From assembly GCA_947630055.1 (NCBI GenBank), contig CANRGA010000001.1, positions 10,195-74,194 on the forward strand: a stretch of DNA of 64,000 nt, given 5' to 3'. A model generated the notes under the pieces. It saw nothing but the letters and a program-made list of their open reading frames with translations, was not told the DNA's origin and did not search any database. Of the stretch, positions 10,050 to 35,440 are shown piece after piece (positions within the stretch are counted from its first letter, which is position 1; every line of letters begins with the position of its first letter). The DNA is from an uncultured Bacilli bacterium (GTDB lineage: Bacteria > Bacillota_I > Bacilli_A > RF39 > UBA660). A program made the translations under genes and the position numbers.

Positions 10050-10837
10050 TGCAAGTAGAAATAATTATTATTGGTATTCTAATCTTTGTTGTAATGACTT
10101 ATAATGGTCAAGTTAGTATTAAAGATTTAATTAGTGATAACTTTTATTTATTTAGAAAGTTAAAAGAAGACGATTGGGATTTTTATGTTAGTGCAAAATA
10201 TGGAGATAGTGTTTCATCTGATGCAATTTTTATGAAGAGAATTCGAAATGGTTTAATGGTAATTGTAATTAGTTTATTTTTCTTCATAAGACAACTTGAT
10301 GCTCTTTATATATTAATATCTTTTGTTTTAGGTTTCTTAGTATTTAAAATGGACTATATGAATATTAAATCTTATTATAAAACTCATATGTTTAAAATAG
10401 ATAGTATGTTACCTCACTATTTAAAAAGTATTGAAATATTAATTCAACACTATACAGTTCCAGTTGCTATTGGTAAATCAATAATTGATGCACCTGATAT
10501 ATTTAAAGATGGATTACAAGAAATGATTAATGAAATAAATTCAGGTGATGACTCAATTAACCCTTATATGAATTTTGCTAAAAAATATCCGGTAAGAGAT
10601 TCAATGCGTATGATGCGTCTTTTATATCGTTTAAGCTTAGGAAGTCAAGATCGTAAACAAGAACAAATGTTGATGTTTTCAAGAACAATATCTAATTTAC
10701 AACAAAAAGCTAGAGAGACGAAATATAAAAATAGACTTGATAAGATGGAAGGCAAAACAATGAATATGTTAATGTCAACTGGTTTTGGAGTAATGATCTT
10801 ATTAGTCCTAGCCGTATTACAAATGATGGATTTATAA
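10049..10837 (+). CDS. TadC-like (T2SS-F family) pilus platform membrane protein
   Basis: Same architecture as the preceding gene. TAATG stop/start overlap with the preceding gene. Confidence 0.5.
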   Translation: MQVEIIIIGILIFVVMTYNGQVSIKDLISDNFYLFRKLKEDDWDFYVSAKYGDSVSSDAIFMKRIRNGLMVIVISLFFFIRQLDALYILISFVLGFLVFKMDYMNIKSYYKTHMFKIDSMLPHYLKSIEILIQHYTVPVAIGKSIIDAPDIFKDGLQEMINEINSGDDSINPYMNFAKKYPVRDSMRMMRLLYRLSLGSQDRKQEQMLMFSRTISNLQQKARETKYKNRLDKMEGKTMNMLMSTGFGVMILLVLAVLQMMDL

Positions 10838-10860
10838 AATTCCTTTATAGGAATTTTTTA
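10837..10860 (+). terminator. Intrinsic terminator or attenuator after the tadC-like gene
   Basis: aaattcct-ttat-aggaattt followed by a T run. Confidence 0.55.
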
Positions 10861-10930
10861 TATTATTGCGTAAATTTATATAAAATTTTTAAAAATATTT
10901 ATTTTATTTGTCAAATATTATAAATATTAA

Positions 10931-10959
10931 TTGCTATTTTGTATTATTTTGGTTATAAT
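10931..10959 (+). promoter_or_regulatory. Promoter dedicated to the pilin genes
   Basis: TTGCTA, 17-nt spacer, TATAAT, followed by the strong RBS AAAGGAGG. Confidence 0.55.
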
Positions 10960-10990
10960 ATTTATAGATAATAAAGGAGGAATGTAATTT

Positions 10991-11269
10991 ATGAAAGAAG
11001 CAACAGGTGAATTAAATATGACAGTTGTAACAGTTGTAGCAATTGCAGCATTAGTAGCTTTCTTTTATTTAGTAATATGGCCAACTATTAAAACAGGTAT
11101 GGCATTAAACTCTGCTTGTAGTACATATGCATCAACTGGTGGTACAGTTACTTTAGATGATGGTGGTACTATTGTATGTACAAAGAAAACTGCAACAACA
11201 ACGGCAACATGTACTTACAATCCATCTGCAACCGAAGGTGGAAAACCACAAACTAAAAACTGTGAATAA
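10991..11269 (+). CDS. Small pilin-like protein (candidate major pilin 1)
   Basis: MKEATG|ELNMTVVTVVAIAALVAFFYLVIW: short charged leader ending in Gly, then a hydrophobic helix. Small Cys-containing globular tail. Confidence 0.55.
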   Translation: MKEATGELNMTVVTVVAIAALVAFFYLVIWPTIKTGMALNSACSTYASTGGTVTLDDGGTIVCTKKTATTTATCTYNPSATEGGKPQTKNCE

Positions 11270-11285
11270 TAGTGAGTAGTAATAT

Positions 11286-11552
11286 ATGAAAGAGACAACA
11301 GGTGAATTAAACGCTACTGTAGCAGTTATGTTAGCTATTGGTGTTTTAATAGCTTTTTTTTACTATACTTTGTGGCCACTTATTAAAAATAATTTCGATA
11401 AAAATTCTCAATGTAGTAAAGCTATATGTGAAAAATGCGATTTAAATGGTGATGGAAAAGCAGATGTTGGATGCGAAACAGTAACTTGTTATCCAAAAGG
11501 TGAAGAACATCAACCTGGTGTAAATGACTTTCAATGTGTCTATAAAGGTTAA
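11286..11552 (+). CDS. Small pilin-like protein (candidate major pilin 2, paralog)
   Basis: MKETTG|ELNATVAVMLAIGVLIAFFYYTLW; Cys-rich tail (six Cys). Confidence 0.55.
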   Translation: MKETTGELNATVAVMLAIGVLIAFFYYTLWPLIKNNFDKNSQCSKAICEKCDLNGDGKADVGCETVTCYPKGEEHQPGVNDFQCVYKG

Positions 11553-11566
11553 GGAAGTGGAATAAA

Positions 11567-12079
11567 ATGCGGGAAGCAATTGGAGGAATATCCATATTTC
11601 AAATAGTTATATTTTTTATATTGTTATTTACAGGGGTTATGTGCTTAACTATTAATCACTCTAAAGCTTTTGGCGTTAAAGATGAAATAATAACAATAAT
11701 AGAAAATGAACCATTAGGAAGTACTTCTACTTCTTCTTTTGGTTTGAGTGAAAGTACAATGGATAAAATTGCTGAGCATTTAAAAGATGCTGGATATAGA
11801 ATTACTGGTAATTGTCCGAATGGATATCAAGGATATAATCGGGAAGGAAATCCCACTAATAATGATGCATCATTTTGTATAAAAGCTAATAAGGTAGAAG
11901 ATAAATTTTATAAAGATGCTAGAGAAAAATGTACTGGCAATAAATGTGTTGTTACAACTGGTGATTTTCCAAATATGGTATACTACGATATAGTATTATT
12001 TTTCCAATTAGACATTCCATTTGTTAAAGATTTATTTGAATTTAATGTAATGGGTTCTACTAAGACTATATTTGGATAG
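11567..12079 (+). CDS. TadE/pseudopilin-like minor pilin candidate
   Basis: MREAIG|GISIFQIVIFFILLFTGVM leader plus helix; ~140-aa Cys-containing ectodomain. Confidence 0.45.
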   Translation: MREAIGGISIFQIVIFFILLFTGVMCLTINHSKAFGVKDEIITIIENEPLGSTSTSSFGLSESTMDKIAEHLKDAGYRITGNCPNGYQGYNREGNPTNNDASFCIKANKVEDKFYKDAREKCTGNKCVVTTGDFPNMVYYDIVLFFQLDIPFVKDLFEFNVMGSTKTIFG

Positions 12080-12089
12080 GTGATATAAA

Positions 12090-12551
12090 ATGCGCGAATC
12101 AATAGGAACTCAAACAATTTTTAAAGCTGTCTTGATTTTCACTTTTTTATTTTCTGGCTTTATTGCAGTTGCAATAACATATAATAAAGCCTTTAAATTA
12201 AAAAATGAGACTATTAATATTTTAGAAAAATATGAAGGCGTTAATAAACAATCTTTAACTATCATTAATAACTATTTGAATCAAAATGGTTATTCTACTA
12301 AAAATCCTTGTGATACCACTGAATATGGAGTAGCAGATTTAAAAAATCCAACATATGAAAAAAGTAATCCTAATAGTAGGTATTATTATTGTCTTTCTTC
12401 TGAGGTAAAAAATAATCAAATATTTTATGGTATTAAATTATTTTCAAGATTTAATTTACCTATAATTGGAGATTTATTCTATTTTAGAGTTACTGGAGAG
12501 ACAAAAGGTATTAAATTATATGATAATAAACAAAGATTAGAAAATAATTAG
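12090..12551 (+). CDS. TadE/pseudopilin-like minor pilin candidate (paralog)
   Basis: MRESIG|TQTIFKAVLIFTFLFSGFI. The C-terminal motif (FNLPIIGDLFYFRVTGETK) parallels the preceding ORF (LDIPFVKDLFEFNVMGSTK). Confidence 0.45.
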   Translation: MRESIGTQTIFKAVLIFTFLFSGFIAVAITYNKAFKLKNETINILEKYEGVNKQSLTIINNYLNQNGYSTKNPCDTTEYGVADLKNPTYEKSNPNSRYYYCLSSEVKNNQIFYGIKLFSRFNLPIIGDLFYFRVTGETKGIKLYDNKQRLENN

Positions 12552-12563
12552 GGAGATGTGAAT

Positions 12564-13544
12564 ATGAATGTAATAGTATCAAATAAATATCAATCATTAC
12601 TAGGAACACTAGAAATAGATGTAATTAAAACAATTAATGGTGAATTTACGGTTCAAGATTTGGTAAATCAATTTAATAATTTTTTCTTTAATAAAATGAT
12701 AATTGATATAACTGCTATTAAAAATTATGAAAATATTAATATAATGCGGGAATTATCATTGAATTTTGAAATGGATAAAATAATTATCTTGTTAGATGAT
12801 TCACCAAGTGTAAATTCAGCAAATTATTTATCTCAATTGGTATCTTTTGGTATTTATAATTTTACAAGAAGTGTAGATGCTATTCCATTTTTAATAGATA
12901 ATCCAAATTCTTATAAAGATGTAGCGGCATATCAAAATTTAAATCCAGATACTAATTTGGACAGTAAAAAAGTTAAAGAAATTGCTCCTGTTAAAATGGA
13001 GCAAAGAGTAATTGGCTTTAAGAATGTTACTGAACATGCAGGAGCTACTACTTTAATATATATGTTAAAAAAGCATTTACAAAGTGAATATAAAGTTAAA
13101 GCAATTGAAGTAAATGCAACCGATTTTGAAAATTTTAATGATAAATCACTTGAAAGTGCTGATTTTATGAATATTTCAATAAAATTAGCAAATAATAGTG
13201 ATGCCGATGTTATTTTAGTGGATTTAAATGATGGTCCAGAAACAATTTGTACCGAAATTATTTATCTAATTGAACCAGGTATTTTAAAATTAAATAAATT
13301 AATTAGGAATGATCGAAAAATATTTGAAAAATTAAAGAATAAAAAAATCGTTTTAAATAGAAGTGTTTTAAACGATAAAGATGTTCATGATTTTGAATAT
13401 GAAAGTGGTAGTAAAATATTCTTTAATATTCCAAGTTTAGATGAAAAATTAGATAATAATAAAAAAATAATTGAATTTTTAATTGCTTTAGGATTTTCTA
13501 GATTAGATGTAGAAAATAATAATAAAAAATTTGGTATTTTATAA
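12564..13544 (+). CDS. TadZ/CpaE-like protein (receiver-like N-domain + ParA/MinD-like domain with degenerate P-loop)
   Basis: The position where KGGxGKT(T) is expected reads FKNVTEHAGATTL. Overall ParA-like layout and last-gene position in the tad-like operon. ATG at 12564 is preferred (RBS GGGAG). Confidence 0.4.
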   Translation: MNVIVSNKYQSLLGTLEIDVIKTINGEFTVQDLVNQFNNFFFNKMIIDITAIKNYENINIMRELSLNFEMDKIIILLDDSPSVNSANYLSQLVSFGIYNFTRSVDAIPFLIDNPNSYKDVAAYQNLNPDTNLDSKKVKEIAPVKMEQRVIGFKNVTEHAGATTLIYMLKKHLQSEYKVKAIEVNATDFENFNDKSLESADFMNISIKLANNSDADVILVDLNDGPETICTEIIYLIEPGILKLNKLIRNDRKIFEKLKNKKIVLNRSVLNDKDVHDFEYESGSKIFFNIPSLDEKLDNNKKIIEFLIALGFSRLDVENNNKKFGIL

Positions 13545-13589: not shown

Positions 13590-13735
13590 AGTAAAGTTTA
13601 AAAGTTCAACAGTGTTGAACGAATTAAGGTGGTCTCATTATTTAAAATTAATAAAGATAGATAATGAAATTAAAAGAAGACAAAAATTTCATTAAAGATC
13701 CATATGTATTAGAATTTTTAGATATAAAAGAAAAA
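13590..13735 (+). pseudogene. Highly decayed DUF1016/YhcG remnant
   Basis: Reads ..STVLNELRWSHYLKLIKIDNEIKRRQKFH*, then IKDPYVLEFLDIKEKY. These match the ..LRQLMWSHIIELLSIKNENERNYY.. and MIKDPII.. segments of the intact copies. Confidence 0.55.
13604..13620. repeat. Palindrome inside the DUF1016 remnant
   Basis: gttcaaca-g-tgttgaac, at the same relative position (just before the ..W-S-H codons) as in the other copies. Confidence 0.85.
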
Positions 13736-13800
13736 TACTGGATAATTTTGCTATATTGTGGTATTATATGAAACAATTGATTTTGAAGGGGTGTTTTGTT

Positions 13801-16800
13801 ATGAAATACGCAAAATATAAGTATATATTTATGTTATTTTTAGTGATCATTTTTTTACCATTTAAAGTTATGGCCAAAAATATTAATTTAGATATTGATA
13901 AATATGATTTAACTATTGGTGATGAAATAACAGTAAGTGTTAGTTTACCAGATGAAATAAAAGCTTATGCAGTTATGGCAACTTTTACTTATGATGAAAA
14001 TGTTTTTACTAAAATAGATATTGATGATTTTTCTATTTTAAATAAAAATTTAAATATTTCTTATAATGATAATACTAAAAAATTTGGTTTAATAAACGAA
14101 ACAGGTAAATTAGATAATGAATTATTTCAAGTTCATTTAAAAGTAAAGGAAAATGCTAATGTTGGCGATACTAATATAGCTTTAACAAATATAGTAGTGT
14201 CTGATGGAACAAAGAAAGAAGAATATAATAAGACTATTAAAACTATTTTAGTTACAAGAGATGCTAAGCCTGGTGAAGAAATACCTATTAATAAATCTAA
14301 TAAAGTAGAAGAAAGTAAAGAAATTGAAACTAAAGTATTTACATCTAAGCCGTTTATGATTACTTTAGGTATAAGTGCTATTGTAATTTTAGGATTAGTG
14401 ATTTATATTACCTTATTTAAAAAAGATAAAAAGACTTTAAAAAATATTCTTGTTGGTTGTGCAACTATTTTAACCATTTCTTTTGTAGTTATATATATAT
14501 TTAATATTAATAAAAGAGATGTTAATAATGATGGAGTTAAAGATTACAATGATGCAAAAGAAATACTTAAATATCTTTTAGATATTACAGGTACTGAAGA
14601 AATTGATAATAATAAAAATACTTCTAATAAAAAACCAAGTATTAACCCAAATAATAAATATGATGTTAATAATGATGGTAAAATTGATATAAATGATGTT
14701 GGTAATAATACGGAAAATGTTACTGAAAATACAAAAGTGATTTTAAAAGAAAAGAACGATAATAAAGATTTTTATGTCAAAAAAGGTGATATTACTTTAA
14801 AATTTACTGCAGAAATTACACCTAAAAATGTAACAATAACTAAAGTAAAAATTAATAATAAATATTATGATGTTATCAATAATAATGGCGAATATTCTGT
14901 TACTATAGAGTCTAATAAAGCAGGTAAATACGAATTTGCTATTACTAGTGTTATTTTATCTAATGGCAAAGAAATAAATGTTAAACTTAAATTTGTAAGA
15001 GAAGTTTTAAAAGTTACTCCTTATGTTAATAAATTTAATTTAAATGATGAAAAAGGTTCTTTAAGTTTTGAACTAGTAGATCCAGAAGATGCTTTTATTA
15101 GTGGTGAAGTTACTGTTTATGATGGTGAAAAAGTAATTGTCAAAGAAAATGTTAAAAGTACAACTAAAATTAATGATATTCCTATTGATGAAGATAAAAT
15201 TTATCGTTTAGAAGTAATGGGAGAATATGATTTAGATAGCAATAAAAATGATGATAATAATCATTTTACTAATCAAACTATGTTTAACCATTCCTTTATG
15301 ATAGGGGGAGATTATAACTTCACTTTAACTGATGTAGGAATTACAGATGCGATTAAAAAGGGTGAAAAGCCAGTTATAAGTTTTAAAAGTACAAATACTA
15401 AAGGAGTGACTGTTGAAAATGCTTCTTTAACTATTGGAAATAAAACTAATAATTATGTCATTAGTAAAATAGATGGTGATAATTATGAAGTTATTTTAGA
15501 AGATGCTGATACATCTGTAGGTAAACATAAAGTAAATTTAGATAGTGTTAGATTAAAATCTTTAAAGACGTTTAATAATAAAAAAGACTATGATGCTAAT
15601 ACACTAACTTATACTGTGTTAAAAGATTCGCCAAAAGTAACTAGTTTGAATGTAGAAGAAGATTCCGAAAATAAAAGTATTATTGCTAAATTTAGTATAA
15701 ATGATGAAAGTAGTGCTATTAGTAGTTTAAAAGTTGTTTTAGTAGATTCAACTGGAGCAGTTATTGCATCACAAATTTTAACAAGAGAAGAATACTTAGA
15801 AAAAGGTGAAGTATCACTATCTTATGATGGTAGTACAGATGGTAATTATAAAGTTAAAATTTTAGCTGATTATGCCCTAAGTGATCAATATAACTATACT
15901 GATAAACCAATTGGGGAAGAAGCAATTACAGTTAATACTGGTGTATATATTGAAGCTATTGAATATGTTGAAACAAAACAAAATAATCGTGTTATTGATA
16001 GTGGTAAATTTGCTAGTAAAGGCCAAAAAATGTATCGAATGAACTTTATCGTTCATACCAAAGGAATAAGATCATATTCACGTCTTTCATCTATTACGAT
16101 TAATGGTTTAAATTATATTGCTAATGGTGGAGCATCTGCCATAGAAAATGCTGAAGGTGAATATAGATATACCTCAACTGTTGCTATTACTGTGCCAAAA
16201 GAAGCAGGTATTATGACAATTACTGCTAATCGTGTTCAATTAGAAGTTAATAGTTATAATTACAAGGTTAATCAATTTTATCATGTTCCAGATGTATCTA
16301 AAGAATATGAAGTATTAAAAGATATTCCAAGTATTGCTAATTTAAAAATACAAAAAGAAGATTATGAAGCAAAAGAAGTTACTTTTAATTTTGATGTTAT
16401 CGACAAAGAAGATTCATTTATAAGTGGTAAATTAGAATTAAATGGTAAGAGTGAAGAGATAAATAAAGGTAATAATACAGTTACTTTTACTGGTATTGAA
16501 ACTGATAAAGTTCATGATTTGATTTTTAAAGCTGATTATAAATTAAGTACTGGTGAAATTGAAGATCCAATTAATCAAACAGAAAAAAGTAATGCGGAAA
16601 TATATAAAGTTAAATATGGTTTATATAAAGAAGATACTTATAATGATATTAAGATAAGTGAAATTACTCCAGTTAGTGAAAAGAACAATAAATATTTTGA
16701 AAAAAACGAAGATATTAAATTAAATCTTATTATTGTAGGCATTCCCGAGTATTTAAATGTTTATCCAGAAAGAGTTATTATTAATGATAAAGAATATGAT

Positions 16801-19800
16801 TCAAAAGCTTTAATGACTTGTCATGAAGTAACTTTAAAGGGTTATACTTCATCTGGTGAAAAAGAACTTAAAGTTAGTGCCATCATTTTAAATAATGGTA
16901 AAGTTATAACTTTAGATAAAGAAGTAACTATTGAAGTATTAAAAGATATACCAAAAATAACTGATTATAAATATTCTATTAATGATAATAGTATTAAAAT
17001 TACTTTAGCTAATAAAGATAGTGATTCATCTTTAGATGGTGATTTACAAGTTAAAGTTACTGATGATACAGGGAAAGAACTTTATAATAGTAAATATCAA
17101 GAGACAATTGAGTTTAAAAAGAATAAAGATGCTTTAAGATATTATATTTCTGTTATAGGTAGTTATGATAGAGATATTGATAAACAAGAAGATAGTGAAA
17201 ACTATAATAAAGATATTAAATTATTAGATGAAACTATTTCTCTAGATAAAAATAATATTGAATTAAAAGATATTACTTATATAACCTTATATAAAGAAGA
17301 AAATGATAAAATATTAGAGATTAGAGAAATAACTAAAGAAGAATTAGAACAAAATATTGAAAAATATTTTGTCGAAGTTAATATGGAAAATATGCCTTCT
17401 GTTTATGCTAAACTTAAAAAAGTTACTATTGAAGATAATCATTTAATGCTAATTTTAGATTATGAATATGTAACTAAAGAAGAAAGTAAATCTAAAGAAA
17501 TCAAAGTTGATTATGGGGCTATAATTAATGGTAAAGCAAAAAATGAAACTAATCCATTAAATGAATTTAATATCTTAAAAGAAAGAATTAAAAATAATGA
17601 ACATATCATTTTAACTCATGATTATGATTTAAAAGATATTGAAGTTACTACAAGTTATTATTTTGAAAACTTTAGTGGTTCAATTGATGGTAATGGTCAT
17701 AAAATAACTAATTTAAGTAAACAATTATTTAATGAACTTAGTAATGCGGAAATTAAAAATTTAATAGTAGAAAATGCTAATATAAGTGGTGCTGTTCGTG
17801 GTATTTTAGCCGATAAAGGTACAGATGTAGTAATTAATAATGTTCATTTATATAATGGTAATATTAAAGCTAATCTTGTTACTAATGGAACTGGTATTAT
17901 GTTTGGTGAAACAAGAAATAGTATAGAAATATCAAATTCATCAATTGTAAATAGTTCAGTTAGTGGTGGCAAAAGAACTGGTGGCTTTATTGGTCAAGCT
18001 TATAATAAAACAACGATTACTAATAGTTATATCAATGATAGTAGTGTAACTGGTAATAATGACGCTATTGGTGGCATTATTGGCGAAGTAAGTAGTGCTA
18101 ATAATGTTTCTATGACTAATTGTTATAGTAAAGTTACTATGGATGGTGGTGCTGGTAATGCTAAAGCTGGTATTTTAGGCTATACTAATAGTAGCGGTGC
18201 AACTAAATTAATTAATAGTTTAAGTATGTCTCAAGGAAATAGTGGTACGAGAGTATATGGTAATGGTATCTCTGCTACTAATGTCTATGAGTTAAAAGAA
18301 TCTACTATGAGATCGCAAGCTGGTGGCCAAATTAAAGAAATAACTGGTAATGATATTAATAAAGAATTCTTTATTAATTCATTAAATTGGGATGAAGAAG
18401 TGTGGAATTTAGATAATGTATCAGCTGATGTACCTCCTATTTTAAAAGGCGAAAAATTTGAGCCTGTGAAAAGCCCAATAGAAGCTGAAGATGGTTATGA
18501 TCCAAATAAAAGAATACTTTATAATAACTTAATGAAATTAATGCCTTTCTATGATAGTGAAAAAATAGTTAGAACTGGTATGCATATTACTGATAATAAT
18601 TTACTTAATAAAGAAATTCAACATATTGTGCCAATTGATAATAAAGGAAGTATTGTTACATATTTAACAAGTGATAATTTAAAGAAAATAAGTAAGATAA
18701 AAGTAGTATATAAAACGAAAGAAAAAGTTACTTATGATGTAAAATTTGATAATACTTATGATATGGTAGCAAGTTATCGTATACCTGATTTAAATATCGA
18801 TTATACTTATAACCATTATATTATTGATGCTAACTCTCAAGTAGTAAATAATATAACTAATTATTTAAAAGATTTAAGTTATACAAATAATTTAGATACT
18901 TTAACTGCTACTAAAGATAGTAGAATATTAAGAGATTTCTATAATGATGTTACTAGTAAAGAATTAAAAGAATTTACTTTAAAATATTTATCTAATAGTA
19001 ATTATACTAATACCACTAACAATGATAGTATTAATAGTCATTTGGAAAGTGAAATTAAAAAAGATAAAAAAATTGAAAAAGTATTATATATGTATAATTA
19101 CTTTAGAAGATTCTATGATGTTGAAATAGATGGTATGAAATTATATGATTTTATGCTATTTAACATGAATGGTTTTGATGAATCATTAACAAGCCAAATG
19201 ATAGCCCGTATTTATTTACAAGATGGTAATAACTTTAACACTGGTTCAACTGGTACTAAATATCGTGATTTACTAGGGGGTTATACTAAACTTAATACTA
19301 TTGCCAAATTCATCGAATATATGGTAACTGAATTTAGTAATGATAATATGAATGATTGGGTAAGGAAAGAATTTGCAGGTTACTTAGTAGAAATTCCAGT
19401 TAAAGGTCATGAAAAAGACATTCAATATACTTTATGGGATCACTTTAGTAATGAAGATGCTGTTTATAATAATCCACATAGAGCATATGATATGATGTTA
19501 CCAATTTTAACATTGCCAAAGAATGCAGCTTATATAATTTCTACGCCAGTTCAATTTATCATCGGGGCGCAAAGAAGTTATATTGAAGATCCAGAAGATC
19601 CTACTTCTCAAAGTATTTTCCAAAGAAGAGTTAAAAGCTACGCTAAGAGAATGGAAACTTATTTTGATACAGCTTATAAAATTTTAGGCGATGCAAAATA
19701 CTTTAATGATATTCATACTTTCCAACTTGATAAAAGATTTGCTTATGATGAAAATGGCGCAATGGTATATCAACAAGCCTATGTTACAGAGGAGCCATTC

Positions 19801-21174
19801 CATAAGAACTTTAATGAAGTAACTGGTCGTTGGCAAACAAGTGATGGTAATGCTGCTGTTGCTTGGGGAGATCGTATTGACTGGAGTGCAGAAGGTTTAA
19901 TGGATGGTAATATTGATCCAGATTTAGTTAGTGTTTTAAATAAACAAATTCAAGAATATACTTATCATACCTTTACGCATGAAACAGCCCATAATATTGA
20001 TGCTAGACTATTCTTAAAAAATAATGGTAGAAGATTTGATGCTGGAGGAGAAGATTATGCTGATAGTAATCTAATGCAATCTTTTGGACCAAATGATATA
20101 GTTATGAATTTATCAACTTATCGTAATGGTGAAAAAATTGCTTCAAATTATACTCCAGATCGAATTAACTCACCAGAAAAAATTCAAAGTTACTATGATA
20201 AAGTATTCCAAACTATCTATGTAATGGATTATATTGAAGCAGAGGCTTTCTTACAACTTCCTAAAGAAGTTCAAGCAAATTTAGCAGTTCAAGTATCTTA
20301 TCCAAATGAAAATTTACAATTTGAAACTTTAGAAGATGGTAAAACTTTCACTGGACCAACTTATAAAGAAGATCCTTATGCTATTTTTAGAGCCCGTCAA
20401 ACATCAAGATTTACTCAATTAAGTGAAATACCAGATGTATTTAATCAAATGAAACTTACATCAATTAATGATTTAATTGATAATCATATTATGATTTATC
20501 CGGGTATTTATAAAGTAGGATCTAGAGGGTCTAACTCTTATGGCGGTGAAGGCATTGGTCATGTTCACTGGTATCAACCATGGAATCCAGAAGGAAGACC
20601 TGATTCATACGCAATTAAATGGATTGCTTATGAAATGCTTGGTTTAAAAGGATATGATGAAGGTTATATTGAGTATTATAGTAATATAAATTCAACACCA
20701 AGAGAAATTTATAAAAACTTATCTAAGCCTAAAGAAGGTAAATCAACCGTTAATTATAAAACTGATTCTATGGCATTAAGTAGAATAACTGAAGGTAGAT
20801 TTGATGATTTTGATAAGTATAAGAAATATCGTTTTGCAGAAACTAAAGCAAAATTAGATAAACTTAATGCCAAAGTTAATGTAAAACAATATGTTCAAAA
20901 ATTATATGATGCTTTACTTGAAGATAATGAATATTCTAAAACAAGATTAGAATCATTACTTCAAGCATATAAAACTGATGAAAAAGGTTGCTTAGGTAGT
21001 TATTGGTGTGCCAGAGGAATATCTGGTGAAGTTAGAGGTTTCTTAAAAAGTACTGCTGTAAGACAAGAAATATATTATACTTTAAAAGATTTAACAAATG
21101 ATTTTGAAGGTGAAATATTTGAAAAAACTACTCAACAAAATGTCAGCGATTTAACTGTTAATAAAGGTGAATAA
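13801..21174 (+). CDS. Giant surface Zn-metalloprotease, ZmpA/B/C (peptidase M26)-like, with cohesin-like and dockerin-like modules
   Basis: Signal peptide MKYAKYKYIFMLFLVIIFLPFKVMA, with RBS GAAGGGG 9 nt upstream. Cohesin-like N-domain and two TM helices. EF-hand dockerin-like DVNNDGVKDYND / DVNNDGKIDIND. Multiple Ig-like repeats. GLUG-type motifs (GGFIGQAYN.., IGGIIGEVS). HExxH site HTFTHETAHNID. Confidence 0.75.
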   Translation: MKYAKYKYIFMLFLVIIFLPFKVMAKNINLDIDKYDLTIGDEITVSVSLPDEIKAYAVMATFTYDENVFTKIDIDDFSILNKNLNISYNDNTKKFGLINETGKLDNELFQVHLKVKENANVGDTNIALTNIVVSDGTKKEEYNKTIKTILVTRDAKPGEEIPINKSNKVEESKEIETKVFTSKPFMITLGISAIVILGLVIYITLFKKDKKTLKNILVGCATILTISFVVIYIFNINKRDVNNDGVKDYNDAKEILKYLLDITGTEEIDNNKNTSNKKPSINPNNKYDVNNDGKIDINDVGNNTENVTENTKVILKEKNDNKDFYVKKGDITLKFTAEITPKNVTITKVKINNKYYDVINNNGEYSVTIESNKAGKYEFAITSVILSNGKEINVKLKFVREVLKVTPYVNKFNLNDEKGSLSFELVDPEDAFISGEVTVYDGEKVIVKENVKSTTKINDIPIDEDKIYRLEVMGEYDLDSNKNDDNNHFTNQTMFNHSFMIGGDYNFTLTDVGITDAIKKGEKPVISFKSTNTKGVTVENASLTIGNKTNNYVISKIDGDNYEVILEDADTSVGKHKVNLDSVRLKSLKTFNNKKDYDANTLTYTVLKDSPKVTSLNVEEDSENKSIIAKFSINDESSAISSLKVVLVDSTGAVIASQILTREEYLEKGEVSLSYDGSTDGNYKVKILADYALSDQYNYTDKPIGEEAITVNTGVYIEAIEYVETKQNNRVIDSGKFASKGQKMYRMNFIVHTKGIRSYSRLSSITINGLNYIANGGASAIENAEGEYRYTSTVAITVPKEAGIMTITANRVQLEVNSYNYKVNQFYHVPDVSKEYEVLKDIPSIANLKIQKEDYEAKEVTFNFDVIDKEDSFISGKLELNGKSEEINKGNNTVTFTGIETDKVHDLIFKADYKLSTGEIEDPINQTEKSNAEIYKVKYGLYKEDTYNDIKISEITPVSEKNNKYFEKNEDIKLNLIIVGIPEYLNVYPERVIINDKEYDSKALMTCHEVTLKGYTSSGEKELKVSAIILNNGKVITLDKEVTIEVLKDIPKITDYKYSINDNSIKITLANKDSDSSLDGDLQVKVTDDTGKELYNSKYQETIEFKKNKDALRYYISVIGSYDRDIDKQEDSENYNKDIKLLDETISLDKNNIELKDITYITLYKEENDKILEIREITKEELEQNIEKYFVEVNMENMPSVYAKLKKVTIEDNHLMLILDYEYVTKEESKSKEIKVDYGAIINGKAKNETNPLNEFNILKERIKNNEHIILTHDYDLKDIEVTTSYYFENFSGSIDGNGHKITNLSKQLFNELSNAEIKNLIVENANISGAVRGILADKGTDVVINNVHLYNGNIKANLVTNGTGIMFGETRNSIEISNSSIVNSSVSGGKRTGGFIGQAYNKTTITNSYINDSSVTGNNDAIGGIIGEVSSANNVSMTNCYSKVTMDGGAGNAKAGILGYTNSSGATKLINSLSMSQGNSGTRVYGNGISATNVYELKESTMRSQAGGQIKEITGNDINKEFFINSLNWDEEVWNLDNVSADVPPILKGEKFEPVKSPIEAEDGYDPNKRILYNNLMKLMPFYDSEKIVRTGMHITDNNLLNKEIQHIVPIDNKGSIVTYLTSDNLKKISKIKVVYKTKEKVTYDVKFDNTYDMVASYRIPDLNIDYTYNHYIIDANSQVVNNITNYLKDLSYTNNLDTLTATKDSRILRDFYNDVTSKELKEFTLKYLSNSNYTNTTNNDSINSHLESEIKKDKKIEKVLYMYNYFRRFYDVEIDGMKLYDFMLFNMNGFDESLTSQMIARIYLQDGNNFNTGSTGTKYRDLLGGYTKLNTIAKFIEYMVTEFSNDNMNDWVRKEFAGYLVEIPVKGHEKDIQYTLWDHFSNEDAVYNNPHRAYDMMLPILTLPKNAAYIISTPVQFIIGAQRSYIEDPEDPTSQSIFQRRVKSYAKRMETYFDTAYKILGDAKYFNDIHTFQLDKRFAYDENGAMVYQQAYVTEEPFHKNFNEVTGRWQTSDGNAAVAWGDRIDWSAEGLMDGNIDPDLVSVLNKQIQEYTYHTFTHETAHNIDARLFLKNNGRRFDAGGEDYADSNLMQSFGPNDIVMNLSTYRNGEKIASNYTPDRINSPEKIQSYYDKVFQTIYVMDYIEAEAFLQLPKEVQANLAVQVSYPNENLQFETLEDGKTFTGPTYKEDPYAIFRARQTSRFTQLSEIPDVFNQMKLTSINDLIDNHIMIYPGIYKVGSRGSNSYGGEGIGHVHWYQPWNPEGRPDSYAIKWIAYEMLGLKGYDEGYIEYYSNINSTPREIYKNLSKPKEGKSTVNYKTDSMALSRITEGRFDDFDKYKKYRFAETKAKLDKLNAKVNVKQYVQKLYDALLEDNEYSKTRLESLLQAYKTDEKGCLGSYWCARGISGEVRGFLKSTAVRQEIYYTLKDLTNDFEGEIFEKTTQQNVSDLTVNKGE

Positions 21175-21353: not shown

Positions 21354-22313
21354 ATGAAAGGCAAAATTATGACAGAAGAAAAAATATACAACGAAATAGT
21401 TGAGTTAATTGAAGAAAGAGAAGTAAAAAAGTTTGTTAGAGAATTTAAAGAAAATTCAGAAACATTAAAAACTAATTGGGAGATAGGTAGATTACTAGTT
21501 AATGCTCAAGGTGGAGAAGCTAGAGCAAAATATGGTGAAAATCTAATTAAGAAATGGGGCGAAAAATTATCTTTAGAATATGGTAAGAATTATAATAAAA
21601 GAAATCTTATGTATTATAGACAATTTTACTTAACATTTCAAAATGTGAACACAGTGTGTTCACAATTTAGTTGGTCAATATGTAGATGCTTATTATCAAT
21701 AAAAAATGAGAATGAGAGAAACTATTATATAAATCAAGTAATACTTAATAATTTATCTGTTAGAGAGTTAAGAAATGAAATAAAAAGTAAAGCCTTTGAT
21801 AGATTATCTTATGCAGATAAAAATAACATTAAGTTAATAACAGAGAATAATAATTCAATAACATTAAGTGATATGATAAAAGATCCGATAATTATTAAAA
21901 CTGATAAAGATACAACTAATTTAACTGAACAAAAATTACATGAAATATTAATTGAGTTAGTTGAAAATCATTATATGGAATTAGGAGCAGGTTTTGCTTT
22001 AATAGGTCATGAATATAAATGCAAAATAGATAATAGAACTTATAAAATAGATTTATTATTCTTTAATTATAAAATAAATGCCTTTGTTGTAGTAGAAGTG
22101 AAGATAAAAGAATATAATCCAAAAGATAGAGGGCAAATAGAATTATATATGGATTATGTTGATAAAAATATAAAAGAAAATTATCATAATAAAACAGAAG
22201 GTATATTAGTAGTTAGAGAAAAGAATAAACTAGTTACTAAATATATTTCTAATAATAATTTATATATTACTACTTATTTATTAGAAAATAAAAAAGTACA
22301 AAATGGCAAATAA
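21354..22313 (+). CDS. DUF1016/YhcG-family PDDEXK nuclease-like protein (copy D, intact)
   Basis: Full-length paralog of copy A: GRLLVNAQGGEARAKYGENLIKKWGEKLSLEYGKNY ... IDLLFFNYKINAFVVVEVKIKE. Confidence 0.8.
   Translation: MKGKIMTEEKIYNEIVELIEEREVKKFVREFKENSETLKTNWEIGRLLVNAQGGEARAKYGENLIKKWGEKLSLEYGKNYNKRNLMYYRQFYLTFQNVNTVCSQFSWSICRCLLSIKNENERNYYINQVILNNLSVRELRNEIKSKAFDRLSYADKNNIKLITENNNSITLSDMIKDPIIIKTDKDTTNLTEQKLHEILIELVENHYMELGAGFALIGHEYKCKIDNRTYKIDLLFFNYKINAFVVVEVKIKEYNPKDRGQIELYMDYVDKNIKENYHNKTEGILVVREKNKLVTKYISNNNLYITTYLLENKKVQNGK
21640..21668. repeat. Palindrome inside DUF1016 copy D
   Basis: aaaatgtgaacaca-g-tgtgttcacaattt. The 10-bp core arms are perfect; there is one mismatch in the outer arms. 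Encodes NVNTVCSQF. Confidence 0.9.
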
Positions 22314-22397: not shown

Positions 22398-22763
22398 ATG
22401 TTATTAGGAGCTACATTTTGTACTGATACTGCAAATATATGGCATTTAGTTGGTATGGTAGTTTATATTTTAAAAATTGTTATTCCACTTGTATTAATCA
22501 TTTTAGGTATGCTTGATTTAGGGAAAGCTGTTGTTTCAAGTGATGAAAAAGCTATTAATAAAGCAGTTGGTACATTAATAAAAAGATTTATTGCAGCAGT
22601 TGTAGTATTCTTTGTTCCTACTATAATTAATGGAATTTTTGGAGTAATTGGTGTAATTGGTGGAAGTTCAAAAGATGATTACCAAGTATGCGTTAGATGT
22701 GTTACTCAAACTTGTGAAGCAGAAGCAGAAGCAGCAAGACAAAGCATCGGCTTTACTCAATAA
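22398..22763 (+). CDS. VirB2/TrbC-like two-TM protein (core-only paralog P1)
   Basis: Contains ..IVIPLVLIILGMLDLGKAVVSSDEKAINKAVGTLIKRFIAAVVVFFVP.., a module shared with the C-termini of the ORFs at 22873, 24153 and 25714. C-terminal Cys cluster. Confidence 0.45.
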   Translation: MLLGATFCTDTANIWHLVGMVVYILKIVIPLVLIILGMLDLGKAVVSSDEKAINKAVGTLIKRFIAAVVVFFVPTIINGIFGVIGVIGGSSKDDYQVCVRCVTQTCEAEAEAARQSIGFTQ

Positions 22764-22847
22764 TTTTTAGTAATTAATGTGTATAGAAAATAGTGTCAAC
22801 AAAGTTAACACTATTTTTTTGTTTTAATTTAATATTTACAATAACCA

Positions 22848-22856
22848 TGTTATAAT
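22848..22856 (+). promoter_or_regulatory. Extended -10 element (TGtTATAAT) upstream of P2
   Basis: The aataaccatgNtataatttag block is duplicated at 24121-24140. Confidence 0.4.
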
Positions 22857-22872
22857 TTAGGTGGGTGAGTCT

Positions 22873-23970
22873 ATGAAAAAAAATAAAGCAATAGCTATAT
22901 TTTGTTTGTTATTTATGATTTTAATAGTTTTTGCAATATGCTCATCTGTATATTTAAGTAAAAGAGAAAATAATAAAGATATAATCATTTTAGCAGCAAA
23001 TAAAAATTATGGTTTAACTAAGGAACAAGTAGAACAAGAATTAAATAAAATGAAATCTACTCCAACTTATGATGAATTAGTATCATTAGCTAAAAGAAAA
23101 TATGGAATGAGTGAAGATGTTTTTCAAGTGGTTTTTGGTTGGGCAATTGGTGAAGGCTATGATAGTCATGATCATTATCTAGGTTACTTATGCGATAATG
23201 TTGGAATTAATCATTATATGGGGTATGGAAAAACTACTGCTAGTTCCTTAGCTGCATCAATAGCCGGAAGAGATAGTAGTGGCTATTATTCAACAAGTAG
23301 GATGCAAGGAAGATCTATTTCTGCTAAAAATAATCCTGGAAGCTATGTAGCAGCTTATAAAGGAATGTATTTAGCTTTGAAATATCCTGAAGAGAATGCA
23401 CATGATTGTGATGGTGTATCAAACTATAGTGGATATGGAGGTCAAAAAATTTATTCAGCAGTAGTTGGAAGATATACAATAAATGTATGGTCTGTTTGGT
23501 ATGATGGCATAAAGCATTGGAACTCTGATGGTAAATATTCTGATAGTAAAGGTGGAATAAAAGGTGCCAAAAAAGAAGAAGTGCTTGTAACATTAAAAGA
23601 CAAAGATCCACGTATAGATTATGCTGATTTATGTAAATCAAAAGGTTTTAGAATGGGTTCTAAAATAGCAGGTATAGTTATATTGGTAGTAAAATGGTTA
23701 ACGCCAATGATATTAATAATACTTGGGATGACAGATTTTACTAAAGCAATGGTTTCAAATGAACAAGATTCATTAGGAAAGGCGACAAAAACATTTATAA
23801 TAAGAATGATGATTGCAATAATGCTACCATTTATTCCAGGACTTATGTATTATTTAGTTGATTATTTTATTGGCGATTTAAAGGATGAAGCCGGGGAACT
23901 TGTATCATGTACTGAATGTCTTAAAGATCCTTTTAGTTGTGTAGTTGAATTGTATGACAATAATAATTAA
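22873..23970 (+). CDS. VirB2-like module fused to a ~270-aa secreted N-terminal domain (P2)
   Basis: Signal anchor MKKNKAIAIFCLLFMILIVF. C-terminus KIAGIVILVVKWLTPMILIILGMTDFTKAMVSNEQDSLGKATKTFIIRMMIAIMLPFIPG...SCTECLKDPFSC. Confidence 0.5.
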   Translation: MKKNKAIAIFCLLFMILIVFAICSSVYLSKRENNKDIIILAANKNYGLTKEQVEQELNKMKSTPTYDELVSLAKRKYGMSEDVFQVVFGWAIGEGYDSHDHYLGYLCDNVGINHYMGYGKTTASSLAASIAGRDSSGYYSTSRMQGRSISAKNNPGSYVAAYKGMYLALKYPEENAHDCDGVSNYSGYGGQKIYSAVVGRYTINVWSVWYDGIKHWNSDGKYSDSKGGIKGAKKEEVLVTLKDKDPRIDYADLCKSKGFRMGSKIAGIVILVVKWLTPMILIILGMTDFTKAMVSNEQDSLGKATKTFIIRMMIAIMLPFIPGLMYYLVDYFIGDLKDEAGELVSCTECLKDPFSCVVELYDNNN

Positions 23971-23989
23971 AAAAGTTTGAGGTGATAAA

Positions 23990-24070
23990 ATGGAAAAAAA
24001 TAAAGCGATAGCTATATTTTGTTTATTATTTATTATATTAACTATTTTTGCAACAATTTCTATTATATAA
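23990..24070 (+). pseudogene. 26-codon remnant duplicating the signal-anchor of P2
   Basis: MEKNKAIAIFCLLFIILTIFATISII* compared with MKKNKAIAIFCLLFMILIVFAICSS; has its own GAGGTG RBS. Confidence 0.6.
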
Positions 24071-24127
24071 TAAGTGTTAAATGCCTTTACAGTTTTATTT
24101 AATTTGTTTTATTATTTAAAATAACCA

Positions 24128-24136
24128 TGATATAAT
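24128..24136 (+). promoter_or_regulatory. Extended -10 element (TGaTATAAT) upstream of P3
   Basis: Duplicate of the block upstream of P2. Confidence 0.4.
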
Positions 24137-24152
24137 TTAGTTAGGTGTTAAT

Positions 24153-24875
24153 ATGAAAAAAAATTGGAAATTATTAGTATTTTGTTTGATTATTATGTTT
24201 TTTATTAATTGTAATATTGCTATTGCGGATTCATCTTGTGATAAATATGCCACACATAATGAAGAAATATGTAATTATGAATCATCAACTTCAGGAGAAG
24301 CAGTATGTAGATGTCTTTATGATTTGAATAAAACTAATGAAACTACTTGTGATAGAGGCTATACAAATAATGTATTAAACATATGTGAGGCTTCATTTCC
24401 AACAACATATGATTTTTCAAAAACGCCGGTAGAAAATAATCCATCTAATACAAATAATACTGAGAGCGATGATACTATTAAAGGATCTAGTGATAGTGCT
24501 GGAAATCCTACAATAGGCGATAGTGGTCCAAGATTGGAATATAATAATTTATGTGAATCAGAAGGATTTAAAACAGGATCTAAAATAGCAGGTATAGTTA
24601 TATTGGTAGCAAAATGGTTAACACCACTTGCATTAATGATATTAGGAATGATAGATTTTTTCAAGGCAGTTATATCGAGTAATGAAAAAGCACTAAGTGA
24701 CGCTACGACTACTTTTATAAAAAGAATAGTAATAGCAATTATTGTTCCATTTGTACCTGGTTTGTTATTTTATTTAGTTGATTTTTTTATCGGTGACGAA
24801 ATTGCAGATACTAAAGTTGAATTTGGCTCATGTACGGAATGCTTAAAGGATCCTTTAAATTGTACAATTAAATAA
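24153..24875 (+). CDS. VirB2-like module fused to a ~140-aa Cys-rich secreted N-terminal domain (P3)
   Basis: Signal peptide. C-terminus KIAGIVILVAKWLTPLALMILGMIDFFKAVISSNEKALSDATTTFIKRIVIAIIVPFVPG...SCTECLKDPLNC. Confidence 0.5.
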   Translation: MKKNWKLLVFCLIIMFFINCNIAIADSSCDKYATHNEEICNYESSTSGEAVCRCLYDLNKTNETTCDRGYTNNVLNICEASFPTTYDFSKTPVENNPSNTNNTESDDTIKGSSDSAGNPTIGDSGPRLEYNNLCESEGFKTGSKIAGIVILVAKWLTPLALMILGMIDFFKAVISSNEKALSDATTTFIKRIVIAIIVPFVPGLLFYLVDFFIGDEIADTKVEFGSCTECLKDPLNCTIK

Positions 24876-24890
24876 TAATAGAGTTGTTTA

Positions 24891-25619: not shown

Positions 25620-25713
25620 TAATATATAAATTATGTAATAAAAATTAGTAGTATTTTCAAAAAATATATGCTAAAATAAAAATATAAATAATAAAGATGT
25701 TAGGAAGATTTCT

Positions 25714-26574: not shown

Positions 26575-26588
26575 GGTGAGAGGTTTAA

Positions 26589-28862: not shown

Positions 28863-28884
28863 TATATGAAGGAGGAATAGAAAG

Positions 28885-29205
28885 GTGAATAATTATTTAA
28901 TACCAGCAAATACAAAGAAATCACAATTAATGTTAGGTTTTTTTACCCCATTGGATTTAGCTATATTTGCAATTGGTTGCTTATGGACACTTATTATGGT
29001 ACTTTTGATAAAAAGTATTAATATGCTTGTTTTAATTCTAATATTATTACCAGCATTAATATCGGCGTTTTTGGTAATGCCAGTACCTCATTATCATAAT
29101 GTATTGCAATTACTAACAAATATTTTCAACTTTTATACAAACAGAAGACGATATTATTGGAAAGGATGGAGTATGTATGAAGAATTCGGAACAAGCGATA
29201 AGTAA
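28885..29205 (+). CDS. PrgI/VirB3-like small membrane protein
   Basis: 106 aa with two TM helices. N-terminus IPANTKKSQLMLGFFTPLDLAIFAIG is typical of PrgI-family proteins that precede VirB4. GTG start after GAAGGAGG. Confidence 0.55.
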   Translation: MNNYLIPANTKKSQLMLGFFTPLDLAIFAIGCLWTLIMVLLIKSINMLVLILILLPALISAFLVMPVPHYHNVLQLLTNIFNFYTNRRRYYWKGWSMYEEFGTSDK

Positions 29206-31527: not shown

Positions 31528-31651
31528 AATAAAATAATTAGATGTAAAAAAAATAACTTTTAGTTATTTTTTTAATCTTTATATCATAAATAAATTGGCT
31601 TTTTTTTACTATTAATGTATGATAAAATATTAAATAGAAGAAGGTGGTAAA

Positions 31652-34504: not shown

Positions 34505-34514
34505 GAGGAATATT

Positions 34515-35438: not shown

Positions 35439-35440
35439 AT

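Follow-up and report, generated by a model that had tools for sequence, protein, structure and literature searches.

Locus and gene product

How a giant surface protease could be held at the cell envelope by modules within its own chain is the question raised by a gene that combines a cohesin, a membrane hairpin, a dockerin and a metalloprotease core. The gene was analysed within its window, the whole 64-kb stretch of DNA from an uncultured bacterium of the rabbit gut. It is a single intact open reading frame running from the ATG at 13801 to the stop codon at 21174, and its product of 2,457 amino acids is identical to a database protein of equal length (P0001). The open frame on the + strand spans 13756..21174; the ATG at 13801 is the start given in the original prediction, and direct reading of the sequence placed a ribosome-binding site, GAAGGGG (13785..13791, +), 9 nt 5' of it. 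Scanning for promoters and terminators gave 58 sites against 65 expected and is uninformative in this AT-rich DNA.

The gene sits co-oriented between a pilus module (7243-13544) and a T4SS module (22398-38636), a placement that is kept in the relatives L003 and L005 (86-92% identity). Copies and remnants of the YhcG nuclease flank it on both sides, and this bracketing hints at a secondary insertion of the gene. Because the part of the window from 39 to 64 kb carries the housekeeping genes SecE, BipA, TyrRS and UDG, a plasmid origin was rejected and the window is taken as chromosomal DNA with an integrated Tad/T4SS region. Comparison of the gene with the PLSDB plasmids by megablast returned no match.

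The M26 protease core and its stalk

The original prediction of a Zmp-like M26 metalloprotease was borne out by Pfam. The Peptidase_M26_C region, aa 1656-2440 (18766..21120, +), scored 110.3 bits against a cut-off of 22 and covered profile positions 2-792 of 792. Peptidase_M26_N (approximately aa 1131-1349) scored 61 bits against a cut-off of 27.7 when residues 851-1350 were scanned, and was not listed in the full-length scan. IgA1 protease entries of the PDB were matched with E = 1e-43, the alignment to chains 6XJB and 7UVK beginning at aa ~1151. The N-terminal part of the core, aa 1151-1655 (17251..18765, +), includes a GLUG-type β-helix region. GLUG motifs had been proposed as well, and two GG[FI]IG motifs were indeed seen, GGFIG at aa 1394 and GGIIG at aa 1424, but the Pfam Glug score of 19.6 bits lies below the cut-off of 20.5, so that the GLUG call is borderline.

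The HETAH sequence (aa 2060-2064), put forward as the zinc site, falls within M26_C. Together with a downstream glutamate it pairs residue for residue with the HEMTH...E of the Streptococcus pneumoniae IgA1 protease in 6XJB, giving a zinc site of H2060-E2061-T-A-H2064 plus E2084 (+20; 19978..20052, +). In the S. pneumoniae enzyme zinc is coordinated by H1604, H1608 and E1628, with E1605 serving as catalytic base (PMC7695701). The window enzyme is probably catalytically active, and a host mucosal protein is a plausible substrate. The NCBIfam models for ZmpA, ZmpB, ZmpC and ZmpD gave 159.6, 124.9, 145.6 and 67.5 bits, respectively, against cut-offs of 3000; by these scores it does not belong to the orthologues of any of the four.

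The core is preceded by a stalk, aa 318-1150 (14752..17250, +), composed of four divergent tandem pairs of β-sandwich (FN3/Ig-like) domains, approximately eight domains in total. Repeated Ig-like modules had been predicted over about 1100 residues; their β-sandwich FN3/Ig character was retained, but since the VLKDxP modules begin at aa 402, 606, 838 and 1046, giving 4 x (A+B) modules, the repeats were shortened to about 830 aa (~318-1150). A windowed Smith-Waterman scan with shuffles gave stalk self-alignment z-scores of up to 8, and BLASTP self-comparison of the stalk gave the identity match only. The AlphaFold model of residues 318-725 contained four all-β sandwiches (pLDDT 90, pTM 0.67) and resembled FN3/Ig arrays when searched with Foldseek.

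Structure of the N-terminal cassette

Ahead of the stalk the order of modules read in the original prediction, a signal peptide and cohesin followed by two transmembrane helices around KKDKKTLKN and a dockerin with two EF-hand loops, was recovered in full, the dockerin by a narrow Pfam score. Hydropathy analysis revealed only three hydrophobic segments in the full chain, aa 8-26, 185-206 and 216-234. The first is the hydropathy peak of a Sec signal peptide, aa 1-25 (13801..13875, +), with a predicted cleavage between VMA and K; AlphaFold predicted a helix at aa 4-18, and Ala25 is invariant in the alignment of 35 homologues.

The cohesin is a nine-strand β-sandwich spanning aa 27-152 (13879..14256, +), identified through Pfam, Foldseek and a family HMM. 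Pfam PF00963 scored 35.3 bits (cut-off 24.1) at aa 29-145 when residues 1-200 were scanned alone, was not reported with the 345-aa or full-length query, and matches 20 of the 35 family members. A phmmer search of residues 1-200 against PDB sequences found nothing relevant, the cohesin being recovered only via Pfam and fold. AlphaFold modelled the domain with a pLDDT of ~90. The top 30 Foldseek matches were all cohesins, and the best PDB matches were the non-cellulosomal cohesins 2VO8 and 2JH2 from Clostridium perfringens, with TM scores, normalised by target length, of 0.76-0.78 and an rmsd of 2.4-2.8 Å.

Alignment and motif counts define a linker, aa 153-184 (14257..14352, +), that ends in a conserved KVFTSKP at the position taken by LPXTG in distant homologues and in streptococcal Zmps. 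The window protein has the hydrophobic segment and basic loop of a sortase substrate, while LPXTG itself is absent, KVFTSKP standing in its place. The first transmembrane helix, aa 185-206 (14353..14418, +; Kyte-Doolittle mean 2.62), is predicted to run from outside to inside and was modelled by AlphaFold as a helix at aa 183-206. It is followed by the short loop KKDKKTLKN, aa 207-215 (14419..14445, +), with 5 Lys in 9 residues; the Lys/Arg-rich character of this loop is kept across the family alignment, and by the positive-inside rule the loop would be cytoplasmic. The second helix, aa 216-234 (14446..14502, +; hydropathy 2.56), would return from inside to outside and was modelled as a helix at aa 211-237. 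This helix corresponds to what in streptococcal Zmps is the second 'signal peptide'. No AxA site comes after it, however, and a signal-peptidase cut at this point in the window protein was rejected on the grounds that its clade has no conserved small-x-small motif there. With the signal peptide removed, the cohesin would lie outside, TM1 would lead inward, the Lys-rich loop would sit in the cytoplasm and TM2 would lead outward again, from where the dockerin, the ~830-residue β-sandwich stalk and the ~1,300-residue protease core would project from the surface.

The dockerin, aa 239-310 (14515..14730, +), contains two Ca-binding loops of 12 residues, DVNNDGVKDYND (aa 240-251) and DVNNDGKIDIND (aa 288-299); a helix comes after each of them (aa 249-268 and 297-310 in the AlphaFold model). 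Both loops follow the dockerin type I pattern, with Asp/Asn at positions 1, 3, 5, 9 and 12. Pfam PF00404 (Dockerin_1) is marginal at aa 239-299, with 23.7-23.8 bits against a cut-off of 22.9, and gave 20.2 bits when the full-length chain was scanned against the same cut-off; it matches 21 of the 35 family members, with a best E of 7e-8.

Distribution of the cassette

The N-terminal SP-cohesin-TM-TM-dockerin cassette is apparently undescribed so far, and within the open-access literature no paper was found that ties M26/Zmp proteases to cohesin or dockerin modules. It persists in about 120 homologues, down to 27% identity. A signal peptide, a ~150-aa domain, two transmembrane helices and HExxH were present in 120 of 120; a family HMM detected the cohesin in 119 of these and a clade-specific HMM the dockerin in 107, with the cohesin always first, and a precomputed PF00404 match is present in 12 of the 13 homologues without a dockerin HMM match.

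In distant homologues the cassette carries the cleavage motifs missing from the window protein. LPQTG immediately precedes TM1 in P0093, P0096 and P0106, as does VPKTG in P0094, whereas P0103 and P0112 show no more than degenerate xTG forms at this point (FTKTG, TPTG). In all six proteins TM2 ends in YAA, VAA, TAA or AAA just before the dockerin. A further protein, P0196, contains a cohesin, LPKTG, a TM helix, RNKKCGKK, a second TM helix, VFA/AS (the slash marking the putative cleavage point), a dockerin and a BNR propeller. Read from its domain order, this is the cassette on an unrelated enzyme, and the cassette is thus no one-off.

The two parts of the cassette were also found apart. Stand-alone genes encoding a signal peptide, cohesin, LPXTG, TM helix and basic tail occur as P0244, P0260 and P0264, each complete within its own contig, and for two of these three the adjacent gene encodes a C-terminal dockerin. 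At L013 a Peptidase_C1-Dockerin gene ends 13 nt upstream of a cohesin anchor gene, and at L012 a gene with a terminal dockerin lies directly 5' of another. In these two-gene examples the enzyme gene comes first and its dockerin is C-terminal, the reverse of the order in the cassette.

A proposed fusion of anchor and enzyme

Comparison with the separate genes supports an origin of the cassette by in-frame fusion of two units. One would have been an anchored single-cohesin protein, with signal peptide, cohesin, LPXTG sorting signal, TM helix and basic tail, and the other a secreted dockerin-bearing enzyme, with signal peptide, dockerin and enzyme; from such a fusion it follows that the hairpin would be the sorting-signal helix joined to a second signal peptide. 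The original prediction had suggested self-assembly or docking to a partner, and this is still the most likely option, self-docking of a fused anchor/enzyme pair being the better-supported form of it. The reading that we favour, and hold with fair but not strong confidence as a whole, is that the gene product is a zinc endopeptidase of the M26 (Zmp / IgA1-protease) family, exported by Sec and tethered to the membrane, in which an anchored cohesin has been fused to a signal peptide-dockerin-enzyme, and that this protease docks onto its own cohesin, whether in cis or in trans. The dockerin would then engage a cohesin of the same molecular species, either as a membrane clamp within one chain or as a link between neighbouring molecules.

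The AlphaFold model of aa 1-345 (pLDDT 82.5, pTM 0.73) predicts the cohesin, hairpin and dockerin in one defined arrangement. A cis cohesin-dockerin contact may be inferred from this pTM alone, a value that is not specific for docking because the stalk model also reaches 0.67.

Distant homologues that have LPXTG and AxA sites, like streptococcal Zmps, would be cut by sortase and signal peptidase, and the freed protease would stay cell-bound by re-binding its own wall-linked cohesin. This split-and-rebind scheme cannot be claimed for the window protein, which lacks both motifs; for the same reason the chain of its clade is probably whole and anchored by the hairpin. Tentatively, and with less confidence than the favoured reading, SP-cohesin-(LPXTG)-TM-TM-dockerin can be proposed to serve Gram-positive surface enzymes in general as a self-contained 'split anchor', of which the window protein would be an uncut derivative. 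Cutting by sortase and signal peptidase would leave the cohesin fixed to wall or membrane and release a dockerin-enzyme, which would re-bind its own cohesin, and in the uncut derivative the two modules would pair in cis or link neighbouring molecules.

Alternative roles of the cohesin and dockerin

Cohesin-dockerin pairs usually join different proteins, for example in cellulosomes and in the toxin complexes of C. perfringens. The modules of the window protein might likewise serve heterotypic docking, the cohesin recruiting another dockerin protein and the dockerin plugging into another cohesin scaffold to form a mixed surface complex; the neighbouring pilus, Cys-rich proteins or proteins encoded elsewhere are the proposed partners. 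Such cross-protein use is the rule, the toxin-complex cohesins of C. perfringens are the best structural matches, and the gene lies between Tad-like pilus and T4SS genes at a position kept in close relatives. A small pilin-like ORF (11286-11552) even bears one EF-hand-like loop, DLNGDGKAD, but it is not a dockerin, having a single loop, no acidic position 12 and neither of the two helices. Family-specific HMMs, run over all six reading frames of the 64 kb, detected no further cohesin or dockerin, which leaves the pilus or Cys-rich partner of the original prediction unsupported. Homologues at 42-50% identity keep the whole cassette and share no neighbouring genes with the window, and the partner therefore cannot be a local gene. 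Genes elsewhere in the genome, beyond the window, could encode other partners. Against heterotypic docking also stands the co-retention of cohesin and dockerin in one chain across the whole family, and we regard it as unlikely, while the best placed of the alternatives.

Somewhat less likely again is that the cohesin- and dockerin-like domains are vestigial, binding nothing and acting as spacers or folding units while the hairpin alone anchors the protein. The marginal Pfam score of the dockerin fits this, as do a spacing between the two Ca loops that ranges from 0 to ~60 residues in the family and a poorly conserved second helix. The benefit of a cis cohesin-dockerin bond is moreover not obvious, because the hairpin alone would anchor the whole chain and an intact chain has no evident need of a non-covalent anchor. 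Both modules are nevertheless kept in the same order from 100% down to 27% identity. In the alignment D240, D244, D251 and N290, at Ca-ligand positions of the dockerin, are invariant, as are I255 and Y258, which like L259 are conserved surface residues of helix 1; this is the pattern expected from purifying selection on a binding function.

A role as an accessory of the surrounding Tad/T4SS element, such as a mating adhesin or a protease clearing the recipient or host surface, appears improbable. Its support is the co-oriented placement between the pilus and T4SS modules, kept in L003 and L005, but more distant members of the family have housekeeping genes as neighbours and no T4SS close by, and the flanking YhcG copies and remnants hint at secondary insertion. 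No membership of the protease in the pilus or T4SS machinery is demonstrable, and we know of no conjugation system that requires an M26 protease. A cellulosome was rejected, since the only cohesin and the only dockerin in the window both belong to the protease and there is no CAZyme; the ORF encodes a probably active surface metalloprotease and not a cellulosome component.

Comparison with known systems and significance

When the protease was compared with known systems, its closest counterparts included the Zmps of streptococci and Gemella (ZmpA, the IgA1 protease, along with ZmpB, ZmpC and ZmpD; MEROPS M26; 6XJA, 6XJB, 7JGJ, 7UVK). The ~1,300-residue core is homologous (E = 1e-43) with the same zinc spacing, HExxH+20E, and in both cases a giant protein of the cell surface begins with a signal peptide, after which come two membrane segments and then repeats (PMC3518915). 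The streptococcal layout, taken from PMC3518915, PMC7939560 and PMC7695701, runs from a signal peptide through LPXTG and two TM segments to a second signal-peptidase site (PMC3518915). In contrast, the window protein shows low identity, has no LPXTG, G5 domain or YSIRK signal, and belongs to an uncultured gut Bacilli bacterium rather than a streptococcus. Its hairpin has a cohesin on the N-terminal side and a dockerin on the C-terminal side; streptococcal Zmps have been described with neither. Further counterparts are the uncharacterised gut-Firmicutes proteins named 'ZmpA/ZmpB/ZmpC family metallo-endopeptidase-related protein' at NCBI (for example P0112, from an uncultured Mediterraneibacter), which have the same architecture and the cassette at 27-30% identity. 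These relatives carry LPQTG/VPKTG or a degenerate xTG before TM1 and an AxA-like site past TM2, both of which the window protein has lost.

The non-cellulosomal cohesins of C. perfringens (2VO8, 2JH2, 2O4E), the best structural match, likewise occur on host-directed hydrolases, there glycoside hydrolases/toxins, and not on cellulases. In C. perfringens the two modules belong to separate secreted enzymes, which they join into complexes, whereas in the window protein both modules are in one chain and flank the membrane hairpin. Sortase-anchored single-cohesin anchors of the cellulosome type, such as ScaE of Ruminococcus flavefaciens, hold partner enzymes with a C-terminal dockerin. The cohesins of P0244, P0260 and P0264 are related to that of the window protein (profile E 1e-23 to 1e-25), and their SP-cohesin-linker-LPXTG-TM-basic-tail unit resembles the first half of the cassette. 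Those systems consist of two genes with the enzyme first, while the single chain of the window protein begins with the anchor, and its dockerin is N-terminal. The enzyme family is known, and the new part, the N-terminal cassette, has the appearance of an anchor protein that became joined to its own enzyme.

M26 proteases are virulence and colonisation factors that include the IgA1 protease and the mucin-cleaving ZmpC. To our knowledge, there has never been a clean explanation of how M26 proteases are retained at the cell when their LPXTG is N-terminal, and thus 'upside-down', and accompanied by two membrane segments. The family described here places recognisable interaction modules exactly at the positions of the LPXTG and the two membrane segments, and the intermediates with LPXTG and signal-peptidase sites, together with the unfused two-gene versions, make the anchoring of M26 proteases a directly testable hypothesis. 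The cassette also suggests a compact display unit that could be reused in surface engineering. It extends the non-cellulosomal use of cohesins and dockerins to the proteases of uncultured gut bacteria.

Gene and modular structure of the protease

The protease is encoded by a single uninterrupted open reading frame (window 13756..21174, +), in which the start codon of the original prediction, ATG 13801, lies 9 nt 3' of GAAGGGG. The product from this codon is 2,457 aa long and has the same length and sequence as the database protein P0001. Hydropathy analysis of the whole chain revealed only three hydrophobic segments, at aa 8–26, 185–206 and 216–234, the last two separated by the sequence KKDKKTLKN, in agreement with the predicted signal peptide and two transmembrane helices (TM1 and TM2). 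Pfam was run on the whole protein and on the protein cut into segments. The full-length scan gave Peptidase_M26_C at 110 bits, with both dockerin and Glug below threshold. The segment scan gave Cohesin at 35.3 bits against a cut-off of 24.1 (aa 29–145), Dockerin_1 at 23.8 against 22.9 (aa 239–299), Peptidase_M26_N at 61 bits and Glug at 19.6 against 20.5, so that the predicted GLUG region is present with a borderline score.

The AlphaFold model of aa 1–345, built with 34 homologues as input, had a pLDDT of 82.5 and consisted of a nine-strand sandwich, two long helices (183–206 and 211–237) and the two loop-helix units expected of the predicted dockerin-type loops. All top Foldseek matches of this model were cohesins, the best being the non-cellulosomal Clostridium perfringens cohesins 2VO8 and 2JH2 with target-length normalised TM-scores of 0.76–0.78, which upholds the predicted cohesin-like sandwich. 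The following stalk (aa ~318–1150) is made up of four A+B pairs, with modules opening with VLKDxP at aa 402, 606, 838 and 1046. The model of aa 318–725 contained four beta-sandwiches (pLDDT 90) and resembled FN3/Ig arrays and the extender repeats of bacterial adhesins by Foldseek. The predicted Ig-like repeats are therefore real, but their length is nearer 830 than 1,100 aa. The protease core (aa ~1151–2441) could be aligned to the solved IgA1 proteases of Streptococcus pneumoniae and G. haemolysans with E = 1e-43, placing HETAH (2060–2064) and E2084 opposite HEMTH and the glutamate 20 residues downstream in the aligned IgA1 protease. These counterpart residues are the zinc ligands and catalytic base of that enzyme (PMC7695701), and the M26 metalloprotease assignment stands.

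Conservation of the N-terminal cassette

A search of 5.8 billion proteins found 147 relatives of the protease; the 120 listed range in identity from 100% to 27% and in length from 1,677 to 4,176 aa. The signal peptide, a domain of ~150 aa, two hydrophobic segments (aa ~180–290), dockerin loops and a near-C-terminal HExxH are found in all 120. The family-derived cohesin HMM matched 119 of them, the sole miss being N-terminally truncated. The clade-specific dockerin HMM matched 107, invariably downstream of the cohesin, and 12 of the 13 remaining relatives carry a precomputed PF00404 match. The calcium-ligand positions and first helix of the dockerin are invariant or nearly so among the aligned homologues. 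As judged from these sequences, the cassette is a trait of the family and extends beyond a single protein.

The ends of the hairpin vary between branches. The distant branch (27–30% identity) includes a Mediterraneibacter member named at NCBI as a ZmpA/B/C-related protein. Immediately N-terminal to TM1, three of its proteins (P0093, P0096 and P0106) carry LPQTG and P0094 carries VPKTG, while in P0103 and P0112 the only motifs are of a degenerate xTG type (FTKTG, TPTG). All six have a strongly basic hairpin loop and a TM2 ending in YAA, VAA, TAA or AAA, with the dockerin right after. In the clade of the window the LPXTG position is instead occupied by a conserved [KI][TV]F[ST]x[KR]P, which by a loose pattern abuts TM1 in 67/92 of P0001–P0092, and comparison of TM2 ends across the family revealed no small-x-small site after TM2 in this clade. 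The motif lies in the linker at window 14257–14352 (aa 153–184), and DSSP assigned isolated bridges at aa 177–178 and 294–295 of the aa 1–345 model. The motif may serve in sorting, as a signal not yet recognised, or make a structural contact.

On contig L001 a protease homologue is adjoined by a 2,359-aa FctA/DUF7601 pilin-like protein (2708–9787), whose C-terminus consists of SPKTLDD followed by a hydrophobic segment and then YRKNIK. Such an end is a hint of non-canonical C-terminal sorting signals in the bacterial clade.

The cassette on another enzyme type and stand-alone anchor genes

The cassette profile gave 2,224 matches among 1.84 billion representatives. One of them is an unrelated enzyme, P0196, in which the order is cohesin, LPKTG, TM, RNKKCGKK, TM, VFA|AS, dockerin and BNR/Asp-box propeller. 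Both P0196 and P0197 carry a BNR/Asp-box beta-propeller, sialidase-like or of a related glycosidase, in place of the M26 protease behind the signal peptide, cohesin, LPKTG and TM-TM(AxA)-dockerin. The same search revealed stand-alone anchor genes of ~220–230 aa (P0244, P0260 and P0264), complete inside their contigs, which encode a signal peptide, cohesin, Pro/Thr linker, LPXTG, hydrophobic segment and basic tail. On L013 (1–1845) the anchor gene begins 13 nt past a gene for a papain-family (Peptidase_C1) peptidase with a terminal dockerin (33 bits), and on L012 (1–1351) it directly follows a gene with a terminal dockerin (31.5 bits). The upstream neighbour on L014 (6960–8684) has only sub-threshold matches, cohesin-like at 18.7 and dockerin-like at 18.1 bits.

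Proposed origin and working of the cassette

The distant-branch LPXTG and TM2 ends, P0196 and the stand-alone anchor genes fit together, and at the level of sequence the cassette is most simply explained by an in-frame fusion that joined an anchored cohesin protein to a secreted enzyme bearing a dockerin. TM1 would be a one-time sorting-signal helix and TM2 a one-time signal peptide. In the branch that has both LPXTG and AxA, cleavage by sortase and by signal peptidase would leave the cohesin linked to the wall and set the dockerin-enzyme free, and cohesin–dockerin binding would keep the freed enzyme on the cell. In the clade of the window, with its different motif at the LPXTG position and no small-x-small site after TM2, the chain therefore probably stays whole and hairpin-held, the cohesin lying next to the dockerin outside the cell.

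The conservation of both modules argues that in the clade of the window binding persists, either in cis or from one molecule to the next. Indirect support comes from the joint retention of cohesin and dockerin across the family and from the window, in which no further cohesin or dockerin was present in any reading frame. The pTM of 0.73 for the three-module chain is weak evidence, because the stalk model also reaches 0.67. The cassette may be a self-docking split anchor. The proposed docking to the pilus or Cys-rich proteins found no evidence. The observation behind the original prediction is confirmed, and its interpretation is partly supported.

Genomic setting

The DNA has a G+C content of ~25%, and the nearest relatives (84–96% identity) are on 'uncultured Bacilli bacterium' MAG contigs from rabbit gut. 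The window is chromosomal, because its 39–64 kb region carries genes for SecE, BipA, TyrRS and UDG. An IS605-type TnpB in this region (59721–60905, +; HTH_OrfB_IS605, OrfB_IS605 and Cas12f1-like TNB domains) adjoins housekeeping genes.

Within this chromosomal DNA, Tad-like pilus genes and a type IV secretion set (2–38.6 kb) form a co-oriented block at 2267–38636 (+). It includes DUF5411 (6824–7231), an RcpC/CpaB-like gene (7243–8010), a T2SSE ATPase (8034–9125), a pilin-like gene of the secretion set (22398–22763), a VirB4-like gene (29740–31527), an M23 peptidase plus lysozyme (31652–34504) and a coupling protein (36417–38636), all on the + strand. The ORFs scanned included neither a relaxase nor an integrase, and the 1,274-aa ORF 2983–6807 (+) had no Pfam match. 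Two small paralogous pilin-like ORFs, 10991–11269 and 11286–11552 (+; 92 and 88 aa), share an MKE(A/T)TGELN start, a hydrophobic helix and a Cys-rich C-terminus. A single EF-hand-like loop in the second, CDLNGDGKADVGC, gave a weak dockerin-loop HMM match (E = 0.009); as a lone loop it was rejected as a dockerin.

The position of the protease gene inside the Tad/T4SS cluster is shared only with relatives of 86–92% identity (L003, L005); homologues with 42–50% identity sit among unrelated housekeeping genes. A YhcG/DUF1016 PDDEXK-nuclease gene occurs four times in the window, as a copy or a remnant. A tandem pair lies at the window start (89–1267 and 1457–2044, both −; repeat families D1–D5). 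The protease gene itself is bracketed by YhcG sequences, with a decayed two-frame remnant (LNELRWSHYLKLIKID / IKDPYVLEFLDIKEKYW; 13615–13750, +) directly 5' and an intact copy (21354–22313, +) directly 3'.

Relation to known proteases

The protease was rejected both as an orthologue of ZmpA–D and as a cellulosomal component, and cleavage of IgA or mucin is only a possibility. The enzyme family and individual domains are already known, and in databases the Pfam matches are recorded, as is a generic Zmp-related name. Neither the cassette nor its link to the puzzle of the N-terminal LPXTG in streptococci appears to have been described, since full-text searches of incomplete literature coverage found no open-access paper that ties M26/Zmp proteases to cohesin or dockerin modules. 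Non-cellulosomal cohesin–dockerin display of proteases may be commoner in gut Firmicutes than has been appreciated.
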